64,000 nucleotides of DNA. Origin: Escherichia coli (lineage in GTDB: Bacteria > Pseudomonadota > Gammaproteobacteria > Enterobacterales > Enterobacteriaceae). A program made the position numbers and the translations under genes. Positions 11,842 to 46,421 of the stretch are shown in pieces. Position 1 is the first letter of the stretch; each line of letters starts with the position of its first letter. Under the pieces are notes generated by a model that searched no databases, was not told the DNA's origin, and worked only from the letters and a program-made list of their open reading frames with translations. The stretch lies in NCBI RefSeq assembly GCF_002854065.1, contig NZ_CP024147.1. The stretch is one strand, 5' to 3'.

Positions 11842-13944
11842 ATGTTTGCCAAATTCATAGATGTTATTCAAACGTTTTTAACTGAACCGGCAATTTTAAT
11901 TGGTTTGCTGGTGGGTATTGGTTATGCCCTTGATAAGAAATCGCCAATAAAAATTATTACCGGCATGGTCAGCGCCATGGTGGGATTAATGATGGTGTTA
12001 TTTGGTGGTTTCCAGTTTTCCGCAACATTTAAACCGGTAGCAGAAGCCGGGTGATGCTGCCAACTTACTGATTTAGTGTATGATGGTGTTTTTGAGGTGC
12101 TCCAGTGGCTTCTGTTTCTATCAGCTGTCCCTCCTGTTCAGCTACTGACGGGGTGGTGCGTAACGGCAAAAGCACTGCCGGACATCAGCGCTATCTCTGC
12201 TCTCACTGCCGTAAAACATGGCAACTGCAGTTCACTTACACCGCTTCTCAACCCGGTACGCACCAGAAAATCATTGATATGGCCATGAATGGCGTTGGAT
12301 GCCGGGCAACCGCCCGCATTATGGGCGTTGGCCTCAACACGATTTTCCGCCATTTAAAAAACTCAGGCCGCAGTCGGTAACCTCGCGCATACAGCCGGGC
12401 AGTGACGTCATCGTCTGCGCGGAAATGGACGAACAGTGGGGATACGTCGGGGCTAAATCGCGCCAGCGCTGGCTGTTTTACGCGTATGACAGGCTCCGGA
12501 AGACGGTTGTTGCGCACGTATTCGGTGAACGCACTATGGCGACGCTGGGGCGTCTTATGAGCCTGCTGTCACCCTTTGACGTGGTGATATGGATGACGGA
12601 TGGCTGGCCGCTGTATGAATCCCGCCTGAAGGGAAAGCTGCACGTAATCAGCAAGCGATATACGCAGCGAATTGAGCGGCATAACCTGAATCTGAGGCAG
12701 CACCTGGCACGGCTGGGACGGAAGTCGCTGTCGTTCTCAAAATCGGTGGAGCTGCATGACAAAGTCATCGGGCATTATCTGAACATAAAACACTATCAAT
12801 AAGTTGGAGTCATTACCCAGAAGCCGTAAGTAAAGCCTATGGTGTTCACGGATATTTAATGGATTCCTACGCAATGAAAGCGGCAACGCAAATTGCATTG
12901 GGGGATAATTTTGGTTATGTCGGGTATGTATTTGTACTGGCGTTTTTTACCAACCTGCTGCTGGTATTATTTGGTCGGTATACTGGTGCCAAAGGGATAT
13001 TTTTGACAGGGAATACCGGTGTTTCACATTCTCAGGCGGTATTATGGTTGATTGTCTTTTGGCTGGGTTTTAGCTGGACTACATCCATTATTATTGCCGG
13101 AATATTAACGGGTGTATTCTGGGCGTTCTTCACCACGCTCATTGTTAAGCCCATTGCCAAAGTTACCAAAGATGCCGGTTTTACCATTGCTCATAACCAG
13201 ATGTTGGGATTGTGGTTTTTCTCCAAATTCGCCCATAAATTTGGTGACCCTGAAAAGCACGATGCTGAAAACCTGAAACTTCCCGGGTGGCTGGCGATTT
13301 TTAACCATAACGTAACGGCTATCGCCATTGTGATGACGCTGTTTGTCGGTGGTTTCTTGCTATCAACGGGTATCGATAATGTCCAGTTAATGGCGAAAGG
13401 CAAGCCCTGGTACATCTATATCATCAACCTTGGCTTACAGTTCTCCATGTATATGGTCATTCTGCTGCAGGGTGTGCGCATGATGGTGGGCGAAATTAAC
13501 GGTTCGTTTAAAGGCTGGCAAGATCGCTTTATTCCTAACGCTATTCCTGCTGTCGATGTTGCAGCGCTGTTACCTTTTTCACCCAATGCCACAACGTTAG
13601 GCTTCGTCTTCTGTACTTTTGGCACCATTTTTTCGATGGGGATCTTATTACTGGTTCACAGCCCAATTATGGTATTGCCTGGCTTTGTACCTCTGTTTTT
13701 CTCTGGCGGTCCAATTGGCGTATTAGCAAACCGCATGGGCGGATACCGTTCCGTAATTATCTGTACGTTCTTGCTGGGTATTATTCAGACCTTTGGTACG
13801 GTGTGGGCTATTCCGTTAACCGGGCTTGCTGAAAATGGCGTCGGCTGGACAGGAATATTTGACTGGGCAACCGTATGGCCTGCTATTTGTGAAGTTCTGA
13901 AATTTATCGCTGCAACATTCCATCTTGGTCCTTACGCGGGTTAA
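11842..13944 (+). pseudogene. PTS ascorbate-family (UlaA/SgaT-like) EIIC, split by an IS1 insertion
   Basis: ORFs 11824..12054 and 12859..13944 both resemble UlaA; removing IS1 plus one TSD copy (777 bp) restores one in-frame ORF of about 441 aa; start codon 11842 vs 11824 uncertain. Confidence 0.8.
12050..12817 (+). mobile_element. insAB: IS1 copy 1 (768 bp) with 9-bp target-site duplication CAGAAGCCG
   Basis: Terminal inverted repeats ggtgatgctgccaacttactgat / ...aagttggagtcattacc; insA 12105..12380 and insB 12299..12802; identical 9 bp at 12041..12049 and 12818..12826. Confidence 0.95.
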
Positions 13945-13965
13945 TTAAATATTAAGGGTTTAAAA

Positions 13966-14286
13966 ATGAAAGATACAATTAATATTCTGTTTGTCTGTGG
14001 TTACGGTGTAGGCAGTAGCGTTATGTTACAAACGGTCGTTAAAAAAGCGCTGACCAAATATGATTTCAAAGTTGAAATGGAACATACCGCCGCAGGTGAA
14101 GTCGGCGGATTTACCGACTGGGCGGATATTTTTGCTATTTCCAAAAAATTACTCGATGTGGTTAGTCTTGACCCGAAACAAGGGCAATATCTGATCCCGA
14201 TAGAGAATATTATGGACGGTGAAACTATTGGTCAGCAAATTTATGAAGTGGTTCAGCAACATTATCCGCATTTAATTAATCAATAA
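13966..14286 (+). CDS. PTS ascorbate-family EIIB component (UlaB/SgaB-like, 106 aa)
   Basis: NILFVCGYGVGSS motif typical of the EIIB phosphorylation-site cysteine region; immediately downstream of the EIIC gene. Confidence 0.8.
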   Translation: MKDTINILFVCGYGVGSSVMLQTVVKKALTKYDFKVEMEHTAAGEVGGFTDWADIFAISKKLLDVVSLDPKQGQYLIPIENIMDGETIGQQIYEVVQQHYPHLINQ

Positions 14287-14297
14287 GGTAGGGCGTA

Positions 14298-16556
14298 ATG
14301 AGAGCGATTATTCTGCTGTTCGATAGTCTGAATAAACGGGTAATGACTCCAACTTATTGATAGTGTTTTATGTTCAGATAATGCCCGATGACTTTGTCAT
14401 GCAGCTCCACCGATTTTGAGAACGACAGCGACTTCCGTCCCAGCCGTGCCAGGTGCTGCCTCAGATTCAGGTTATGCCGCTCAATTCGCTGCGTATATCG
14501 CTTGCTGATTACGTGCAGCTTTCCCTTCAGGCGGGATTCATACAGCGGCCAGCCATCCGTCATCCATATCACCACGTCAAAGGGTGACAGCAGGCTCATA
14601 AGACGCCCCAGCGTCGCCATAGTGCGTTCACCGAATACGTGCGCAACAACCGTCTTCCGGAGCCTGTCATACGCGTAAAACAGCCAGCGCTGGCGCGATT
14701 TAGCCCCGACGTATCCCCACTGTTCGTCCATTTCCGCGCAGACGATGACGTCACTGCCCGGCTGTATGCGCGAGGTTACCGACTGCGGCCTGAGTTTTTT
14801 AAATGGCGGAAAATCGTGTTGAGGCCAACGCCCATAATGCGGGCGGTTGCCCGGCATCCAACGCCATTCATGGCCATATCAATGATTTTCTGGTGCGTAC
14901 CGGGTTGAGAAGCGGTGTAAGTGAACTGCAGTTGCCATGTTTTACGGCAGTGAGAGCAGAGATAGCGCTGATGTCCGGCAGTGCTTTTGCCGTTACGCAC
15001 CACCCCGTCAGTAGCTGAACAGGAGGGACAGCTGATAGAAACAGAAGCCACTGGAGCACCTCAAAAACACCATCATACACTAAATCAGTAAGTTGGCAGC
15101 ATCACCGAATAAACGTTATCTGCCACCTTATGGCGATGCGTTAACCAAAGCGCCTAATTTCCAACGTCTGGCGGCTCATGCCGCCACCTTTGAAAACAGT
15201 TACGTCGGCAGTATGCCGTGTATGCCTGCCCGGCGGGAGTTGCATACCGGGCGATGTAACTTCCTGCATCGGGAGTGGGGGCCGTTAGAACCGTTTGACG
15301 ATTCCATGCCGGAGCTGCTTAAAAAGGCGGGGATCTATACCCACCTGATAAGCGATCATTTGCATTACTGGGAAGATGGCGGCGGGAATTATCATAATCG
15401 CTACAGTTCGTGGGAGATTGTGCGCGGACAGAAAGGCGATCACTGGCATGCAAGCGTTGCGCAACCGCCTATTCCCGAGGTGCTACGGGTGCCGCAAAAG
15501 CAGACCGGTGGCGGTGTTTCTGGTCTGTGGCGCCATGACTGGGCAAACCGGGAATATATTCAGCAGGAAGCGGATTTTCCACAAACTAAAGTGTTTGATG
15601 CAGGCTGTGCCTTTATCCACAAAAATCACGCGGAAGATAACTGGTTATTGCAGGTCGAAACGTTTGATCCGCACGAGCCGTTTCACACAACGGAAGAGTA
15701 TCTTTCCTTGTATGAAGATAACTGGGATGGACCGCATTATGACTGGCCGCGTGGCCGGGTGCAGGAAAGCGACGAGGCCGTGGAGCACATCCGTTGCCGG
15801 TATCGTTCGCTGGTGTCGATGTGCGATCGCAACCTGGGGCGCATTCTCGACCTGATGGATGAGCACGATCTGTGGCGAGATACCATGCTGATTGTCGGCA
15901 CTGACCACGGCTTTTTACTCGGTGAGCATGGCTGGTGGGCGAAAAACCAGATGCCTTATTACAACGAAGTTGCCAATAATCCGTTGTTTATCTGGGACCC
16001 GCGCAGTGGTGTAAAAGGAGAGCGGCGACAGGCACTGGTACAAATGATCGACTGGGCGCCAACGTTGTATGACTTTTTTCAACAGCCAGTGCCGCCCGAT
16101 GTGCAGGGGCAACCGCTGGCGAAAACGGTCAGTCACGATGAACCAGTACGCAGCTCGGCGATGTTTGGTGTCTTCAGTGGTCATGTTAACGTAACTGATG
16201 GGCGTTTTGTCTATATGCGTGCAGCGCTGCCGGGGCGTGAGGATGATATTGCCAACTACACGTTGATGTCCTGCAAAATGAACAGCCGCTATCCGGTGGA
16301 TGAGATGCGGGCTTTATCGCTGGCCCCACCGTTTCGTTTTACCAAAGGGTTACAGGTATTACGCATCCCGGCACAGGAAAAATATAAGGGGTTGAATCAG
16401 TTTGGTCATTTGCTGTTTGAGCTGCAAAACGATCCGCAGCAGCTACATCCGATTCATGATGATGTGATCGAGTCCCGGATGATCGCGTTGCTGATTCAGT
16501 TGATGAAAGATAATGATGCGCCGCCAGAGCAGTTTCAGCGCCTGGGATTAGCGTAG
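14298..16556 (+). pseudogene. Cys-type (formylglycine-dependent) sulfatase, split near its 5' end by an IS1 insertion
   Basis: ATG at 14298 encodes MRAIILLFDSLNKR, then IS1, then the ORF resumes in frame (YLPPYGDA...); sulfatase signature C-M-P-A-R-x4-T-G present; no signal peptide. Confidence 0.8.
14339..15106 (-). mobile_element. insAB: IS1 copy 2 (768 bp, reverse orientation) with 9-bp target-site duplication GAATAAACG
   Basis: insB 14354..14857 and insA 14776..15051 on the minus strand; identical 9 bp at 14330..14338 and 15107..15115. Confidence 0.95.
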
Positions 16557-17511: not shown

Positions 17512-17655
<144 letters not shown>

Positions 17656-17666
17656 ACGCAGCTACA

Positions 17667-18335
17667 TTAATTCCGCCGTTCAAATGCCAGTGCTTTGCGC
17701 TCGATCAGACGCATCATCAGCGTCAGCAGGCCGTTGACGACCAGGTAAATAATCCCTGCCGCACCGAACACCATTACATCGTAGGTGCGTCCGTACAACA
17801 ACTGGCTGTATCCCATCACTTCCATCAGCGTAATGGTGTAAGCCAGAGAGGTACTTTTGAACACCAGCACCACTTCGTTGGAATAAGAAGAGAGCGAGCG
17901 TTTAAAGGCATACGGCAGCAGGATCGCCAGCGTATCTTTTTTGCTCATTCCCAGGGCGCTACAGGACTGCCACTGACCTTCTGGGATCGCACGAATTGCA
18001 CCGTAAAACAGCTGCGTGGTATACGCCGCACTGTTCAGCGATAACGCAATCAGCGCACATAACCACGGTTCTGACAACAAATGCCACAGTGCCGGATACT
18101 CCTGCAACGTCGGAAACTGGCCCGGCCCGTAATAAATCAGGAAGATCTGCACCAGCAGCGGCGTACCGGTAAACAGTGTGATATAACCCCGCACCAGCCA
18201 CACCAGCACCGGCGTTTTCAGCGTCAGGATGATGGTAAAAATCAACGCCAGAATCAGCGCCACAATCAGCGAGGCAACCGTCAGCGTCAGGCTGGTGTGC
18301 AGCCCTTTCATCAGTTCGGGTAAATACTCAAACAT
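17667..18335 (-). CDS. artM: Arginine ABC transporter permease ArtM (222 aa)
   Basis: Permease ORF in the art cluster; synteny. Confidence 0.9.
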   Translation of the reverse strand: MFEYLPELMKGLHTSLTLTVASLIVALILALIFTIILTLKTPVLVWLVRGYITLFTGTPLLVQIFLIYYGPGQFPTLQEYPALWHLLSEPWLCALIALSLNSAAYTTQLFYGAIRAIPEGQWQSCSALGMSKKDTLAILLPYAFKRSLSSYSNEVVLVFKSTSLAYTITLMEVMGYSQLLYGRTYDVMVFGAAGIIYLVVNGLLTLMMRLIERKALAFERRN

Positions 18336-19051
18336 TAGCTGGGCCTCCGCTCAAAACGTGTCGCGCGCAGGTCAATGCGTTTGAGAATGTACTGACTCAA
18401 CAGGGTGATCACCAGGTAAATCGCCGCCGCCACAATGTACCAGGTAAATGGTTCCTGGGTACGGGTAGCGATGCTTTTGGTTTGTAACATTAAATCATTC
18501 ACACTAATCAAACTGACCAGCGCGGTATCTTTCAGCAGCACCAGCCACTGGTTACCGAGGCCAGGCAACGCATGACGCCACATCTGCGGCATCACCAGAC
18601 GGAAAAAGATAGCCGATTTCGACAGCCCCAGCGCCTGGCCGGATTCCCACTGACCCATCGGCACCGCTTTCAGCGCGCCGCGCAGCGTTTGAGAGGCATA
18701 GGCGGCATAAAGCAGCGACAGAGCGATGACACCGCAAAGGAACGGACTCACGTCGAAGTTTTCAATATCCACCTGCACCGGGATCTGCACGAACCCAAGA
18801 TTGATAGTGAAGCCATCCGAAAGCGTCAGCAGCAGCTGTGAGGAGCCAAAATAGATAAACAGCACCACCAGAATTTCTGGCAGGCCACGCAGAATGGTTA
18901 CCAGCGCTGAACCTGACCACGCGACAGGACGCCATTTTGCCGACTCCCACACCGCAAAGAACATCGCCAGCGCCAGTCCGACAATCAATGCACAAACGGC
19001 AAGGCCGACGGTCATCCCGGCGGCGCTTGCTAAAGGAAAAAATTCATTCAT
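18335..19051 (-). CDS. artQ: Arginine ABC transporter permease ArtQ (238 aa)
   Basis: Permease ORF in the art cluster; synteny. Confidence 0.9.
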
Positions 19052-19057
19052 CAGGAA

Positions 19058-19789
19058 TTACTTCTGGAACCATTTGTTGTAGATGGTTTCGTAAGTGCCA
19101 TCTTTCTTCACTTTTTCCAGCGCAGTGTTGAGTTTCTGCTGCAGTTCAGTGTTGCCCTGACGTACCGCGATGCCGAGGCCAGTGCCGAAGTAATCTTTAT
19201 CGGTCACTTTGTCGCCCACCGCCGCCAGTTTCGGGTTATCTTTCAGCCACTCAGTGACCACTGCGGTGTCACCGAAGACGCCGTCGATACGCCCGTTTTG
19301 CAGATCCAGTTTTGCGTTCTGGTAGCTGTCATACGGAACGGTAGTGATTTCCGGGTGCTTATCCATAATGAATTTCTGGTGTGTCGTCCCGTTCTGTACG
19401 CCGACTTTTTTGCCTTTCAGCTGATCAACACTGGTGTATTTGCCTTGCTGACCCACAAACAGGGCAGAGTTGTCATAGTACGGGGTGGTAAACAGCACCT
19501 GCTTTTCACGTTCTGGGGTGATATCCATCCCGGCCATCACCGCTTCTACGCGACGGAATTTCAGGCTTGGGATCAGGCTGTCAAACGCCTGGTTAGAGAA
19601 AGTACAGGTTGCATCAATCTCTTTACACAGTGCCTGTGCCAGGTCGACGTCAAAACCAACGATCTGGTTGTTTGCATCAATCGATTCAAACGGAGGATAG
19701 GAGGCTTCGGTAGCAAAACGAATGGTTTCGGCAGCTGTGGCGGAAAGACTAAAACCTGCAATTAACGCGGCAATCAGAACTTTTTTCAT
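19058..19789 (-). CDS. artI: Arginine-binding periplasmic protein ArtI (243 aa)
   Basis: Signal peptide plus binding-protein fold; paralogous to artJ. Confidence 0.9.
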   Translation of the reverse strand: MKKVLIAALIAGFSLSATAAETIRFATEASYPPFESIDANNQIVGFDVDLAQALCKEIDATCTFSNQAFDSLIPSLKFRRVEAVMAGMDITPEREKQVLFTTPYYDNSALFVGQQGKYTSVDQLKGKKVGVQNGTTHQKFIMDKHPEITTVPYDSYQNAKLDLQNGRIDGVFGDTAVVTEWLKDNPKLAAVGDKVTDKDYFGTGLGIAVRQGNTELQQKLNTALEKVKKDGTYETIYNKWFQK

Positions 19790-19806
19790 TGTTGTTATCC
19801 CGAATC

Positions 19807-20535
19807 TTAGTGAGAGAGATAGTTTTTAAATGCTTCGGTTTGCGGCTCGGTAAAGCAGCTCGCGTCGCCTTGTTCTACGATATGACCATTTTCCATATAC
19901 ACCACTCGGCTGGCGGTTTTACGCGCCACTTCAACTTCGTGGGTGACGATCACCTGGGTAATATTCGTTTCTGCCAGCTCACGAATGATGCTGACGATTT
20001 GTGCCGTAATTTCCGGGTCCAGTGCGGCGGTCGGTTCATCAAACAGCAGTACCTGCGGTTCCATCATTAACGCACGGGCAATAGCAACACGCTGCTGCTG
20101 ACCACCAGAAAGATGCAGCGGGTAACGATCGCTATAAGGTTTGAGACGCAGACGTTCCAGCAGTTTTTCTGCACGGGCCAGCGCCTGATCTTTACTCAAC
20201 CCCAGTACACGGCAGGGCGCTTCAATCAGGTTTTGCTGCACGGTCAGATGCGGCCACAGGTTGTATTGCTGAAACACCATGCCAACGTTACGACGCAAAT
20301 CGCGAATCGCTTTGTCTGAGGGTGTTTTGGTGAAATCGAAATGGTTGCCTGCAATGTTGAGCGTACCGGAGCGCGGCATCTCAAGCAGATTGAGTACACG
20401 CAGCAGCGAGCTTTTACCCGCGCCGCTGGGGCCAAGTAACACCAGCGTTTCGCCCTGTGGGCAATCCAGCGTGATATCGAACAGCGCCTGATGCGCGCCG
20501 TAGAAGCAATTAATGCCGTTTAATTGAATACTCAT
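19807..20535 (-). CDS. artP: Arginine ABC transporter ATPase ArtP (242 aa)
   Basis: Walker [10 protein letters not shown], signature LSGGQQQR; start trimmed to [13 protein letters not shown]. Confidence 0.9.
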
Positions 20536-20752
20536 TGACACTCGTATACTGGCAGTCTGATAGCTATTGAGGTCGAAGATAGTACCTTTGACAGAATAAT
20601 TATGCAATATTTCTGCTTTAAAAGTTAAAAGCAAAGCGCATTATTCAATAAACATAGCACAAAATAACGGGGGCGGTGGTCGGCGAGCATAAATGTCGGC
20701 ATTCCTCACGAAATGCCGGACAATTTACGGGGTTTATTGGTTGATCAAGGCG

Positions 20753-21268
20753 TTAGCGATTCTCGATGGACTGACGGAGCGTACCCGCCGTGGCATGAAC
20801 GCTACCGCCTAAGTAGCGCACATCGTCGATCACCCAACACTGGCCTTCCTGAATCATTAACACTTCATCCTGCCAGCCCTGGTCACCCTGCTTGAGATCC
20901 ACGCGCAATGGAATGTTACGGGCATCACGATTAGGGATAGTCGATGCACTGGCAACGTGGGCGCTGTCTGGCAAGGTGGTTCGACTGGAGAACGGATCGC
21001 TGCTTAACAATTCACGATGACTATTATCGCGGCTGGCATCGCTAAGTAGGGTTGCCAGTTTGTCACTCAAATAGGGGCGCAGGGCGGTAATGTCATTGCT
21101 GCGATGTTGAATGCGGTAGTCATAGAATTGTTGGGCTACGCTGTCAGGCCCCCCCTGGACACAGGAACCGGTGCGGGGACCGTTATCTTTATAAGCTGGC
21201 GTGACGGTGGTACAGGCACTCAGCAGCAGTGCACATGGAATAAGTAGAGATAGTGAACGGTAGCGCAT
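20753..21268 (-). CDS. ybjP: Lipoprotein YbjP
   Basis: Lipobox LLLSAC after a signal peptide; synteny after artP. Confidence 0.8.
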   Translation of the reverse strand: MRYRSLSLLIPCALLLSACTTVTPAYKDNGPRTGSCVQGGPDSVAQQFYDYRIQHRSNDITALRPYLSDKLATLLSDASRDNSHRELLSSDPFSSRTTLPDSAHVASASTIPNRDARNIPLRVDLKQGDQGWQDEVLMIQEGQCWVIDDVRYLGGSVHATAGTLRQSIENR

Positions 21269-21891
21269 AATCATTTCCTTATTAGCTTGCTGTCTGCGTC
21301 ACACTACGACCAAACGCTATCAGATTATTTAATACATTGTTTTTAATACAATTCTGAAACAATCTGAACACCTGATTGGGTTTGAGTCCATTGCTGGCTA
21401 CCCACTCAAGGTTGCTCGTAGCTGACTTACTTAAATTACCCAAACAATAGACAGTGTAAACCATTTGTGAGGTTGAGCGTGTTATATGGCTGAAATGATC
21501 ATTTAAGGTAAATATGATAGTTCTGAAATGGTGGTATAAATCCTCCTGTAGAGGTTAAGAGCATCTGCAAGAAGCCAGTTTCACATTTATAACGCGTGAT
21601 AAATGAACGCGGTTATTGTCTAATCATTACAAATTTTTCACATGCGATAAGAGATCCTGCTATTAAGATGATTGCCAAAATTACGTTGTATTTTTGAAAA
21701 TGAGCGAAATTTGATAGTCCCAGCTTTGACTTTTGATAATATTATTTATGTTACAGTTGTGGGTATAAAATATAATCTTTTTGAACAAGTGAATTTGAGC
21801 GAAGAATAAATCAAGTTGTTTCAGTGTTTCGTTAATTAATATGAGTATAAAAGGTGTTGTGCTTTTACAATAATAAAGCGCGAGGAGTTCG

Positions 21892-22661
21892 GTGGATTAT
21901 CGTTTTTCTTGGGTGATTTTTAATATGATAAACAATATATCTGATCAAGCGTCATCATTTCCATGCACACAATTGAATCAAAGTGATAATTTCCTCGATT
22001 CACTGAGGGAATTTTTCGCGATATTAAATTCCAGTCGTAAGGGTGAGTTGTCTACATGGGATACCATCTACTTGCATCTGATATTAGCAATAAATGCTGA
22101 CAGTGATCTCATAAAAAATGATGTGTTGCTCGCGGAAAATATTCCAACAGCGGATTATCAATTTAATACATTTTTAGTAATGCTTTCGAGACTGATGTTA
22201 AAAAATATCTGGGTAAATCAGAAGATAACGAAGTTGAAATAAAAACGGGTAATGAAAGAATCTCTATTGGAATACGTAACATATCGAATGGAAAACTTGA
22301 AAGACAAAAGTTTCTTTTCCCACTGGACTATGAGAATAAATTACAACATCAATTAGACAAGCATTTTACGATTGAATCGCACCCATTATTATACAGGCAT
22401 ACTATGGGTAGTAAGATTGCGAATGTGATTTTTGAAAAATTATACAGTCGTATTGACTTTAACAAAGAACAATATATATCCTTTATAAAGGACGCGTTTC
22501 TTCATTTTTATGATTATAGCAGGCGATATGCAATTAATGAGAATATTGCAAAAGACGCTGTAACAAACAATATCGCATTGATGAGCACTTTTTATGACAG
22601 TGATAATACGTCAGGTGAGGTTTTAAATAATGATTTTACAGAAGAGTCATTTGAAACTGCG
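21892..22661 (+). pseudogene. 5' fragment of an AT-rich gene of unknown function: frameshifted, then truncated by IS1
   Basis: ORF 21892..22242 (frame 1) overlaps an open frame-0 segment 22167..22661 that runs into the IS1 end; possible GTG start with a gaggag Shine-Dalgarno. Confidence 0.4.
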
Positions 22662-23429
22662 GGTGATGCTGCCAACTTACTGATTTAGTGTATGATGGTG
22701 TTTTTGAGGTGCTCCAGTGGCTTCTGTTTCTATCAGCTGTCCCTCCTGTTCAGCTACTGACGGGGTGGTGCGTAACGGCAAAAGCACTGCCGGACATCAG
22801 CGCTATCTCTGCTCTCACTGCCGTAAAACATGGCAACTGCAGTTCACTTACACCGCTTCTCAACCCGGTACGCACCAGAAAATCATTGATATGGCCATGA
22901 ATGGCGTTGGATGCCGGGCAACCGCCCGCATTATGGGCGTTGGCCTCAACACGATTTTCCGCCATTTAAAAAACTCAGGCCGCAGTCGGTAACCTCGCGC
23001 ATACAGCCGGGCAGTGACGTCATCGTCTGCGCGGAAATGGACGAACAGTGGGGATACGTCGGGGCTAAATCGCGCCAGCGCTGGCTGTTTTACGCGTATG
23101 ACAGGCTCCGGAAGACGGTTGTTGCGCACGTATTCGGTGAACGCACTATGGCGACGCTGGGGCGTCTTATGAGCCTGCTGTCACCCTTTGACGTGGTGAT
23201 ATGGATGACGGATGGCTGGCCGCTGTATGAATCCCGCCTGAAGGGAAAGCTGTACGTAATCAGCAAGCGATATACGCAGCGAATTGAGCGGCATAACCTG
23301 AATCTGAGGCAGCACCTGGCACGGCTGGGACGGAAGTCGCTGTCGTTCTCAAAATCGGTGGAGCTGCATGACAAAGTCATCGGGCATTATCTGAACATAA
23401 AACACTATCAATAAGTTGGAGTCATTACC
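22662..23429 (+). mobile_element. insAB: IS1 copy 3 (768 bp) without a target-site duplication
   Basis: Flanks are gaaactgcg (left) and agtaatctc (right); insA 22717..22992, insB 22911..23414; insB has an H-to-Y change relative to copies 1 and 2. Confidence 0.95.
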
Positions 23430-24092
23430 AGTAATCTCTATTTATCACACACTGTTGTGAATGAAAGTATATTGAAGAAATGTTGTTTTGAAAACGGCAG
23501 TTTAGGTGATGTTAAAATAACAAATAGCAATATAATAAATAATGTATTCAAAAATATTTCGTTTAGATCTGTTAAAATTAACAACGTAAATACTCATTCT
23601 TTAAAATTTATTAACTGCAATTTTTTCAATGTTGATATGATAAGAGTTAATTTCAGTAAATGTCTTTTTCATGACTGTAGTATGCATGGTGTCAAGATAA
23701 AACCATAGTTGCCAGTAAAATGGACAAAAGAGTTAATAAATGATTATTTGTATGGCTGTTTACTCTCTCTGTACTCTATCTGTGCAAGAGATATATATAA
23801 TATGATCGCCGGGAATAACGTGAAGGTTGCTGCGGATGCTTTCCTTGAAATACTTTATTCTCTTAAAAATAAATATTGTATTAAACTATTAAGCGCTCAG
23901 GATCGGGCGTTTATATACGAATTTGCAAGAATGATCTTCGCTTATATTAATGACAAAAGCATTGAGATCTTATTACTTTCTTGTTTTGCGGCGGCTGACC
24001 AAAAAGCAATCCAGCGGTATATACCTCAGGCGCAAGATGGGGAAGACTTTAGGAATCATTTACAATATAAGTTGACTCTTCCCACTCATTAA
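23430..24092 (+). pseudogene. 3' fragment of the same or an adjacent AT-rich gene: pentapeptide-repeat-like region with an in-frame amber stop at 23706..23708
   Basis: Frame 0 is open from the IS1 boundary; ORFs 23457..23708 and 23709..24092 are in the same frame separated only by TAG; repeat-like stretch NVFKNISFRSVKINNVNTHSLKFINCNFFNVDMIRVNF. Confidence 0.4.
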
Positions 24093-24302
24093 TATTGCCG
24101 GCACAACATAATAGGGCAGGTAAGCGGTGCTCCATAATGAAACCAATATCCGGTTACGAAACAGATAATTGTACAGGCTTATGTACCTGTTTTTGACACA
24201 ATGAGATGATTTCCTAAACTGATCAAAACCTTCTTCCCAACATGGCATATCAGTCCGATAATGCTTTAGAGATCGAAGGCTTAACAAACAAGGAGATCGA
24301 TC

Positions 24303-35024: not shown

Positions 35025-36497
35025 TTAATTACGTTTTTCCAGCAGGGTCCGGTAAATCAGACCACCGATAATGCCGCCGACAATTGGCACCACCCAGAAG
35101 AACCACAGTTGTTCTAATGCCCAGCCGCCCTGGAAGATGGCAACCGCGGTGCTGCGCGCCGGGTTAACAGAAGTGTTAGTCACCGGAATACTGATTAAGT
35201 GAATCAGGGTTAAGGCCAGACCAATAGCGATCGGCGCAAAACCTGCCGGAGCGAATTTGTCGGTTGCGCCGTGGATCACCAACAGGAAACCTGCACTCAA
35301 TACCAGTTCAACTACCAGCGCGGAAAGCATGGAATAACCGCCTGGTGAATGCTCGCCATAACCGTTAGGGTGATGCTGCCAACTTACTGATTTAGTGTAT
35401 GATGGTGTTTTTGAGGTGCTCCAGTGGCTTCTGTTTCTATCAGCTGTCCCTCCTGTTCAGCTACTGACGGGGTGGTGCGTAACGGCAAAAGCACTGCCGG
35501 ACATCAGCGCTATCTCTGCTCTCACTGCCGTAAAACATGGCAACTGCAGTTCACTTACACCGCTTCTCAACCCGGTACGCACCAGAAAATCATTGATATG
35601 GCCATGAATGGCGTTGGATGCCGGGCAACCGCCCGCATTATGGGCGTTGGCCTCAACACGATTTTCCGCCATTTAAAAAACTCAGGCCGCAGTCGGTAAC
35701 CTCGCGCATACAGCCGGGCAGTGACGTCATCGTCTGCGCGGAAATGGACGAACAGTGGGGATACGTCGGGGCTAAATCGAGCCAGCGCTGGCTGTTTTAC
35801 GCGTATGACAGGCTCCGGAAGACGGTTGTTGCGCACGTATTCGGTGAACGCACTATGGCGACGCTGGGGCGTCTTATGAGCCTGCTGTCACCCTTTGACG
35901 TGGTGATATGGATGACGGATGGCTGGCCGCTGTATGAATCCCGCCTGAAGGGAAAGCTGCACGTAATCAGCAAGCGATATACGCAGCGAATTGAGCGGCA
36001 TAACCTGAATCTGAGGCAGCACCTGGCACGGCTGGGACGGAAGTCGCTGTCGTTCTCAAAATCGGTGGAGCTGCATGACAAAGTCATCGGGCATTATCTG
36101 AACATAAAACACTATCAATAAGTTGGAGTCATTACCAACCGTTAGAAGCAAAACCGCTGGCTGCCGCGTCAAAACCCGTTTTACCACTGGCAATTAAATA
36201 CAGCAGCGCCGCTGCAACAATACCGCCGACAACCTGGGCAATTACGTAGCCAACGACTTCTTTTGCCGGAAAACGTCCGCCAGCCCATAAACCAATAGTG
36301 ACCGCCGGGTTAAAATGACCACCAGAAATATGACCAACAGCGAAGGCCATCGTCAGAACGGTCAAACCGAATGCCAGCGCCACGCCGGCAAAACCAATGC
36401 CTAATTCCGGGAAGCCTGCGGCCAGTACAGCACTACCACAGCCACCAAAAACAAGCCAGAAAGTACCAAAACATTCAGCTGCTAATTTTCTGAACAT
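35025..36497 (-). pseudogene. aqpZ: Aquaporin Z, interrupted by an IS1 insertion
   Basis: N-terminal part 36137..36497 ([13 protein letters not shown]... with NPA) and C-terminal part 35025..35368 (...second NPA...RTLLEKRN) on the minus strand, separated by IS1. Confidence 0.9.
35369..36136 (+). mobile_element. insAB: IS1 copy 4 (768 bp) with 9-bp target-site duplication AACCGTTAG
   Basis: Identical 9 bp at 35360..35368 and 36137..36145; insA 35424..35699, insB 35618..36121 with an R-to-S change. Confidence 0.95.
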
Positions 36498-46333: not shown

Positions 46334-46421
46334 TGGCGGTGAGGGGGGGATTCGAACCCCCGATACGTTGCCGTATACACACTTTCCAGGCGTGCTCCTT
46401 CAGCCACTCGGACACCTCACC
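46334..46421 (-). tRNA. serW: tRNA-Ser, anticodon GGA (88 nt including CCA)
   Basis: Minus-strand sequence GGTGAGGTGTCCGAGTGG...CCTGGAAAG...GGTTCGAATCCCCCCCTCACCGCCA with a long variable arm. Confidence 0.9.

Follow-up and report, generated by a model that had tools for sequence, protein, structure and literature searches.

Why does one IS1 copy out of four lack the short direct repeats that flank the others, and was DNA lost along with them? The 64-kb window, which is the whole stretch of Escherichia coli DNA analysed here, contains four full-length 768-bp IS1 copies, named A to D (Table 1). IS1 makes target-site duplications of 8-9 bp (PMC12065110), and perfect 9-bp direct repeats surround A, B and D. 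The original prediction had placed copy C, reported its missing duplication and described the perfect repeats at the other three copies, and all of this proved exact. The two 9-mers that abut copy C are identical at 2 of 9 positions, which is chance level, and inspection of its junctions by eye brought out no offset repeat. Since the chance probability of a 9-bp match is about 4e-6, the duplications of A, B and D are real and their absence from copy C is a true difference.

The element itself is a complete IS1. Its 768 bp are bounded by two imperfect inverted repeats of about 23 bp (GGTGATGCTGCCAACTTACTGAT / GGTAATGACTCCAACTTATTGAT), and it holds insA, the insB frame and the A6C site of the programmed -1 frameshift. 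Its homologues in relatives are annotated as 'IS1B family transposase, programmed frameshift'. Copy C differs from A and B at one of 768 positions (IS1 position 592) and from D at two. An 8-9 bp duplication is the IS1 property that was not found here; its loss is a trait of the insertion history and not of the element, and copy C remains an IS1. What it does not represent is an unmodified simple insertion.

Two base substitutions set individual copies apart. At window position 23253 (IS1 position 592), copy C alone has T, where A, B, D and the orthologous IS1 of strain 100416, a near-identical relative described below, have C. This C->T change replaces His by Tyr in the insB frame (KLHVISK to KLYVISK). 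Copy D has a C->A change of its own at IS1 position 412 (window 35780).

Table 1. Coordinates of the IS1 copies, of the interrupted gene and of the junctions at the copy C locus. TSD, target-site duplication; IRL and IRR, left and right inverted repeats.
Feature	Coordinates	Strand	Remarks
IS1 copy A	12050..12817	+	TSD cagaagccg; within PTS IIC gene
IS1 copy B	14339..15106	-	TSD cgtttattc (IS orientation); 5' end of sulfatase gene
IS1 copy C	22662..23429	+	complete, 768 bp; no TSD
Copy C IRL	22662..22684	+	GGTGATGCTGCCAACTTACTGAT at 22662; exact-match search for inverted-repeat ends
Copy C IRR	23407..23429	+	...AAGTTGGAGTCATTACC ending at 23429; exact-match search for inverted-repeat ends
Copy C insA ORF, 91 aa	22717..22992	+	ORF list and sequence
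Copy C A6C frameshift motif	22968-22974		within insA
Copy C insB frame	22911..23414	+	private C->T at 23253
Left flanking 9-mer gaaactgcg	22653..22661	+	junction exactly common to 100416 and the Logan assembly of SRR28786075
Right flanking 9-mer agtaatctc	23430..23438	+	in IS1-free alleles, 366 bp downstream of left 9-mer
IS1 copy D	35369..36136	+	TSD aaccgttag; interrupts aqpZ
5' remnant of gene, codons 1-258	21892..22661	+	1-bp deletion in T run near 22170
3' remnant of gene, codons 381-600	23430..24092	+	TGG->TAG nonsense at 23707 relative to L002
Intact homologue of gene	L002:3861-5660
Locus junctions, window	left 22661; right 23430		366 bp missing versus intact allele
Locus junctions, 100416	left 22661 (identical); right 24132		1,068 bp missing versus intact allele
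Locus junctions, CUWW06	left 21601; right 24078		2,074 bp missing versus intact allele

The interval missing from the interrupted gene

Both flanks of copy C belong to one AT-rich gene (33% G+C versus 51% for the whole window) located between ybjP and ybjQ/amiD. In IS1-free E. coli, the intact allele is a 600-codon ORF annotated as 'pentapeptide repeat-containing protein'. We aligned the flanks to two such genomes. In E. coli 33F4 (L002), gaaactgcg closes the left flank at L002:4634 and agtaatctc opens the right flank at L002:5001; the two are collinear, with strand and order conserved, and 366 bp separate them. The closest IS1-free relative found, GDSC2227PM (L007), has the same 366 bp between the flanks. 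The alignment breaks exactly at 22661/22662 and 23429/23430, so that the endpoints of the deletion are the termini of IS1. The locus thus combines the two marks of an IS-associated deletion, namely collinear flanks with extra DNA in the IS-free allele and endpoints at the IS termini.

The missing interval is in frame and corresponds to codons 259-380 of the ORF, which bears out the suggestion that the degraded gene had lost DNA from its middle at this junction. Nor are the flanks directly contiguous in an IS1-free allele, with 8-9 bp duplicated around the element, since they lie 366 bp apart. Of 5,426 complete E. coli genomes, 1,105 match the interval, and 1,102 of these have it as one contiguous stretch. 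Among the alleles examined, it is missing only from the IS1-bearing 100416, one of the three partial matches. The 366 bp were found neither elsewhere in the window nor in the whole genome of 100416. These data exclude a history without loss of DNA, in which point mutations would have erased an existing duplication: 7 of 9 positions would have had to change while the flanks stayed 99.9% identical to those of relatives, and IS1-free alleles hold 366 bp between the flanks.

The affected gene is a dispensable, already degraded and uncharacterised accessory gene. Pfam pentapeptide matches cover residues 368-469 of its intact homologue, of which one scores below the curated cutoff and the other equals it. 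The sole NCBIfam match of this homologue is to HalA, the Hailong anti-phage effector; it is short, lies in the pentapeptide region and scores 28 bits against a cutoff of 250, and probably reflects only shared repeat composition. Identity with espX2 was considered and rejected: espX2 (ECs_0876) is located between rhlE and dinG, whereas the disrupted gene lies between ybjP and ybjQ. BLASTP against EspX2 gave a best E-value of 1.3, which does not place the gene in the EspX family. In O157 Sakai, the same locus is occupied by the split pair ECs_0949/ECs_0950.

Further lesions are found in the two remnants. The 1-bp deletion near 22170 shifts the frame and is private to the window; it was added in the window lineage after the arrival of IS1. 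The region of the nonsense codon at 23707 is deleted in both near-identical relatives, so its timing is not datable from these two genomes. Both lesions are compatible with a gene that was already dead. Given the missing 366 bp, the pentapeptide-repeat gene of the window is not restorable by excision of IS1. At window position 22639, 20 bp from the IS1 junction, there is also a small in-frame polymorphism, the window and 100416 having one GAA codon fewer (GAAGAAGAG to GAAGAG) than L002 and L007.

Junctions in near-identical genomes and the route of the loss

Over tens of kilobases, the window shares at least 99.9% identity with two complete genomes: 100416, from human stool in the Gambia, and CUWW06, from wastewater in Thailand, both labelled E. 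coli. Both carry an IS1 at the copy C locus, in the same orientation, and no target-site duplication surrounds this IS1 in any of the three genomes. The edges of the element differ from one genome to the next. Compared with the window, 100416 has lost a further 702 bp on the right, and CUWW06 a further 1,060 bp on the left and 648 bp on the right. Neither relative has copy A or B, their sites being cleanly empty, while copy D is common to the window and CUWW06 and absent from 100416. Because A and B are missing from both relatives and D from 100416, copy C is older than the other three and came to all three genomes by inheritance; the sharing of copy D with CUWW06 only places the window nearer to CUWW06 than to 100416. 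Read on this tree, the locus holds an old, shared IS1 whose edges were eroded stepwise and have been remodelled at least four times in the three-genome clade. Every scenario that we counted for the polarity of the original junction costs four events, and the tree leaves this polarity undecidable.

Copies A and B (12050-15106) are mutually inverted and enclose 1,521 bp with most of the PTS IIC gene and the PTS IIB gene, an arrangement that resembles a composite transposon. They disrupt this PTS IIC gene as well as the neighbouring sulfatase gene. Because each has a duplication to itself and neither occurs in the two closest relatives, the two copies were inserted recently and independently. Their origin as the inversion product of an intramolecular transposition was rejected, each having its own duplication and the segment between them being collinear with that of the relatives. 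The three genomes also differ at the tRNA-Ser(GGA) gene beside clpA (window 46334-46421). Both the window and CUWW06 have this site empty. In 100416, at least 26 kb adjoin tRNA-Ser(GGA) (L005:1-26535), including a tyrosine integrase, catA1, tet(B), a Tn3-family transposon, a group II intron and IS fragments; from its gene content, this stretch looks like an integrated multidrug-resistance island.

The left junction of copy C was also found in the Logan assembly of SRR28786075, on a contig that matches window positions 17623-22687 with 0 mismatches and 2 gaps. It was absent from the GTDB representative genomes. The right junction of the window and both junctions of CUWW06 each occur in a single genome, and the former was absent from the other E. 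coli genomes, the GTDB representative genomes and the metagenomes searched. As it is seen in the window alone, the reality of this right junction rests on the assembly. The window might then misrepresent a true IS1 - 366 bp - IS1 arrangement in which two identical copies were collapsed, a reading encouraged by the near identity of the IS1 copies and by the uniqueness of this junction. We nevertheless hold such an artefact to be highly improbable. Four IS1 copies were resolved in the window, including a pair 1.5 kb apart, and the left junction is present independently in 100416 and SRR28786075. Two finished relatives have single-copy, deletion-bearing alleles at the same place, and a collapse of generic copies does not yield the private substitution of copy C.

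Adjacent deletion and recombination between IS copies are the usual reasons for missing duplications (PMC11708052), and these are the two routes that the original prediction had offered. The deletion that it called for is there; the choice between the routes is not decidable from sequence, and our preference has to draw on the relatives. We favour an IS1-mediated adjacent deletion by intramolecular transposition, following a single shared insertion, and give this reading a probability of roughly 0.55. A single IS1 would have inserted into the AT-rich pentapeptide-repeat gene in the common ancestor of the window strain, 100416 and CUWW06, with a normal 9-bp duplication. Transposase would later have joined one end of the resident IS1 to a nearby target in the same molecule, by intramolecular replicative transposition. 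This joining would remove one copy of the duplication together with 366 bp of the gene, and would keep IS1 intact and in place. The same process, acting independently in the relatives, could have enlarged their deletions on one side or on both. The loss of 366 bp, the collinear flanks, the sharing of IS1 by the relatives and the differing junctions are observed; the action of transposase, and the choice of the IS1 end that moved, are what we infer. Adjacent deletion mediated by transposase depends on the IS1 transposase and on both IS ends, proceeds without RecA and requires no second IS copy; for these properties the nested allelic series is indirect evidence.

Two features of the locus lead us to prefer adjacent deletion. 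Four differing secondary junctions in three genomes need no extra insertions under this mechanism, and all the deletions are in the range from below one kilobase to about 1 kb. Adjacent deletions cluster around 1 kb for IS1 (PMC12065110), and the deletions of about 0.4-1 kb at the copy C locus are compatible with this class. Adjacent deletion is expected to yield repeated erosion at one end, anchored on a resident IS, and stepwise growth of IS-adjacent deletions has been tracked over time in the LTEE (PMC11708052). Since copy C is older than A, B and D, it has also had more time for secondary events.

The same sequence would result from recombination between two IS1 copies. In that case, gaaactgcg and agtaatctc, with 366 bp between them, would each have received an IS1 in direct orientation, both insertions making a duplication, and RecA-dependent recombination would have excised the interval and one copy, leaving a single hybrid IS1. 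This predicts exactly what is observed, with only 366 bp missing, and recombination between IS copies is a recognised cause of missing duplications (PMC11708052; PMC7373316). The lineage is dense in IS1, close pairs such as A and B, 1.5 kb apart, do exist, and IS1 has hit the islet repeatedly in unrelated strains. On the other hand, each of the four secondary junctions would require an additional IS1 insertion, where adjacent deletion requires none; no two-copy intermediate was found among E. coli genomes; and deletions between IS copies are reported to cluster near 10 kb and not below 1 kb (PMC12065110). Recombination is therefore a possible route that we consider rather unlikely. Partner half-sites for the flanks of copy C were not found in the 64-kb window; none are expected for a simple deletion because its reciprocal product is a lost circle.

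We also searched 5,426 E. coli genomes for the two ancestral states that would still bear the duplication, namely IRR+gaaactgcg+interval and interval+agtaatctc+IRL. Neither state was found in these genomes, where matches with at least 80% coverage turned out to be joined pieces of unrelated IS1, and the IRR+gaaactgcg+interval state was absent from metagenome contigs too. Because this intermediate was not found, the two-step history is one that we infer and have not observed. The missing ancestor, in E. coli genomes and metagenome contigs alike, would also be expected if a single event had brought both IS1 and the deletion, as when the element enters a double-strand break or a deletion intermediate, so that no duplication was ever made; de novo IS movements that lack duplications and are tied to rearrangements have been proposed (PMC11708052). 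Yet all 14 of the 14 natural IS-plus-deletion cases in the LTEE consisted of an insertion and, after it, an adjacent deletion (PMC11708052), and the changing junctions in the relatives show post-insertion erosion at this very element, which makes a one-step event improbable.

Repeated IS1 insertion in the islet and known systems

The islet between ybjP and ybjQ (window 21300-24300) has received independent IS1 insertions in unrelated E. coli: EC19/IMT16316, MINF_7C, MEW and THO-008. In EC19, and apparently in IMT16316 too, the IS1 is a variant of 93% identity, 720 bp are missing and there is no duplication. This variant, sitting in the same gene with no duplication and a 720-bp gap, counts in favour of adjacent deletion. 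In MINF_7C, the IS1 insertion is a simple one that lies 11 bp from the 100416 junction and is flanked by the duplication ccaatatcg. For MEW and THO-008/STN0717-11, the lengths of the spans, as opposed to a reading of the sequence, suggest simple IS1 insertions. Given these independent insertions and the split gene pair of O157 Sakai, the pentapeptide-repeat gene has been repeatedly inactivated across the species. IS1 prefers AT-rich DNA, and the repeated hits fit this preference. They are also in keeping with the spread of IS1 and the loss of genes through IS described in Shigella and EIEC (PMC7373316).

The islet may even be a natural IS1 hotspot, in which one resident IS1 erodes it from both ends in different descendants. 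We advance this tentatively, as somewhat short of an even chance, on the grounds that one clone holds three nested alleles and that IS1 has struck independently at least two to four times in unrelated strains. Such a hotspot would offer a natural allelic series from which to measure how fast, and in which direction, IS1 adjacent deletion proceeds beyond the laboratory. The junctions of the locus IS1 are strain-discriminating markers, the pair being different in each of the three near-identical genomes.

Taken alone, the deletion at copy C is of little significance, being an ordinary, textbook and already known consequence of IS1. It does illustrate neatly that lost DNA can be recognised by the absence of a target-site duplication. 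The only extra is the natural series of nested deletions on one IS1 in three near-identical genomes, which is mildly interesting.

IS1-mediated adjacent deletion was reportedly described by Reif and Saedler in 1975, and replicative intramolecular deletions are said to have been analysed by Turlan and Chandler in 1995. The copy C locus resembles the classical deletions in that IS1 is intact, the deletion starts from an exact IS1 terminus, no duplication is left, and relatives have nested deletions sharing one fixed IS end. It differs from them in that the case is reconstructed from natural alleles alone, and in that CUWW06 is eroded on both sides.

The LTEE offers a parallel in which an IS without duplication arises from insertion, then adjacent deletion, then extension of the deletion (PMC11708052). 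There, IS150 was tracked through time, whereas our case concerns IS1 and is reconstructed from three contemporary genomes. In Shigella/EIEC, IS1 expansion is accompanied by IS-disrupted pseudogenes, strain-variable IS sites and IS-associated deletions (PMC7373316). Four IS1 copies in 64 kb amount to a density of the order reported for Shigella, which is only a hint. Unlike the known convergently lost pathways of these pathogens (PMC7373316), the gene at copy C lies outside them, and the closest complete relatives of the window are labelled E. coli. IS1 expansion and IS-linked gene loss are common to both, and the locus exemplifies how such an expansion can turn an insertion into progressive gene loss in IS-laden genomes of the E. 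coli/Shigella type.
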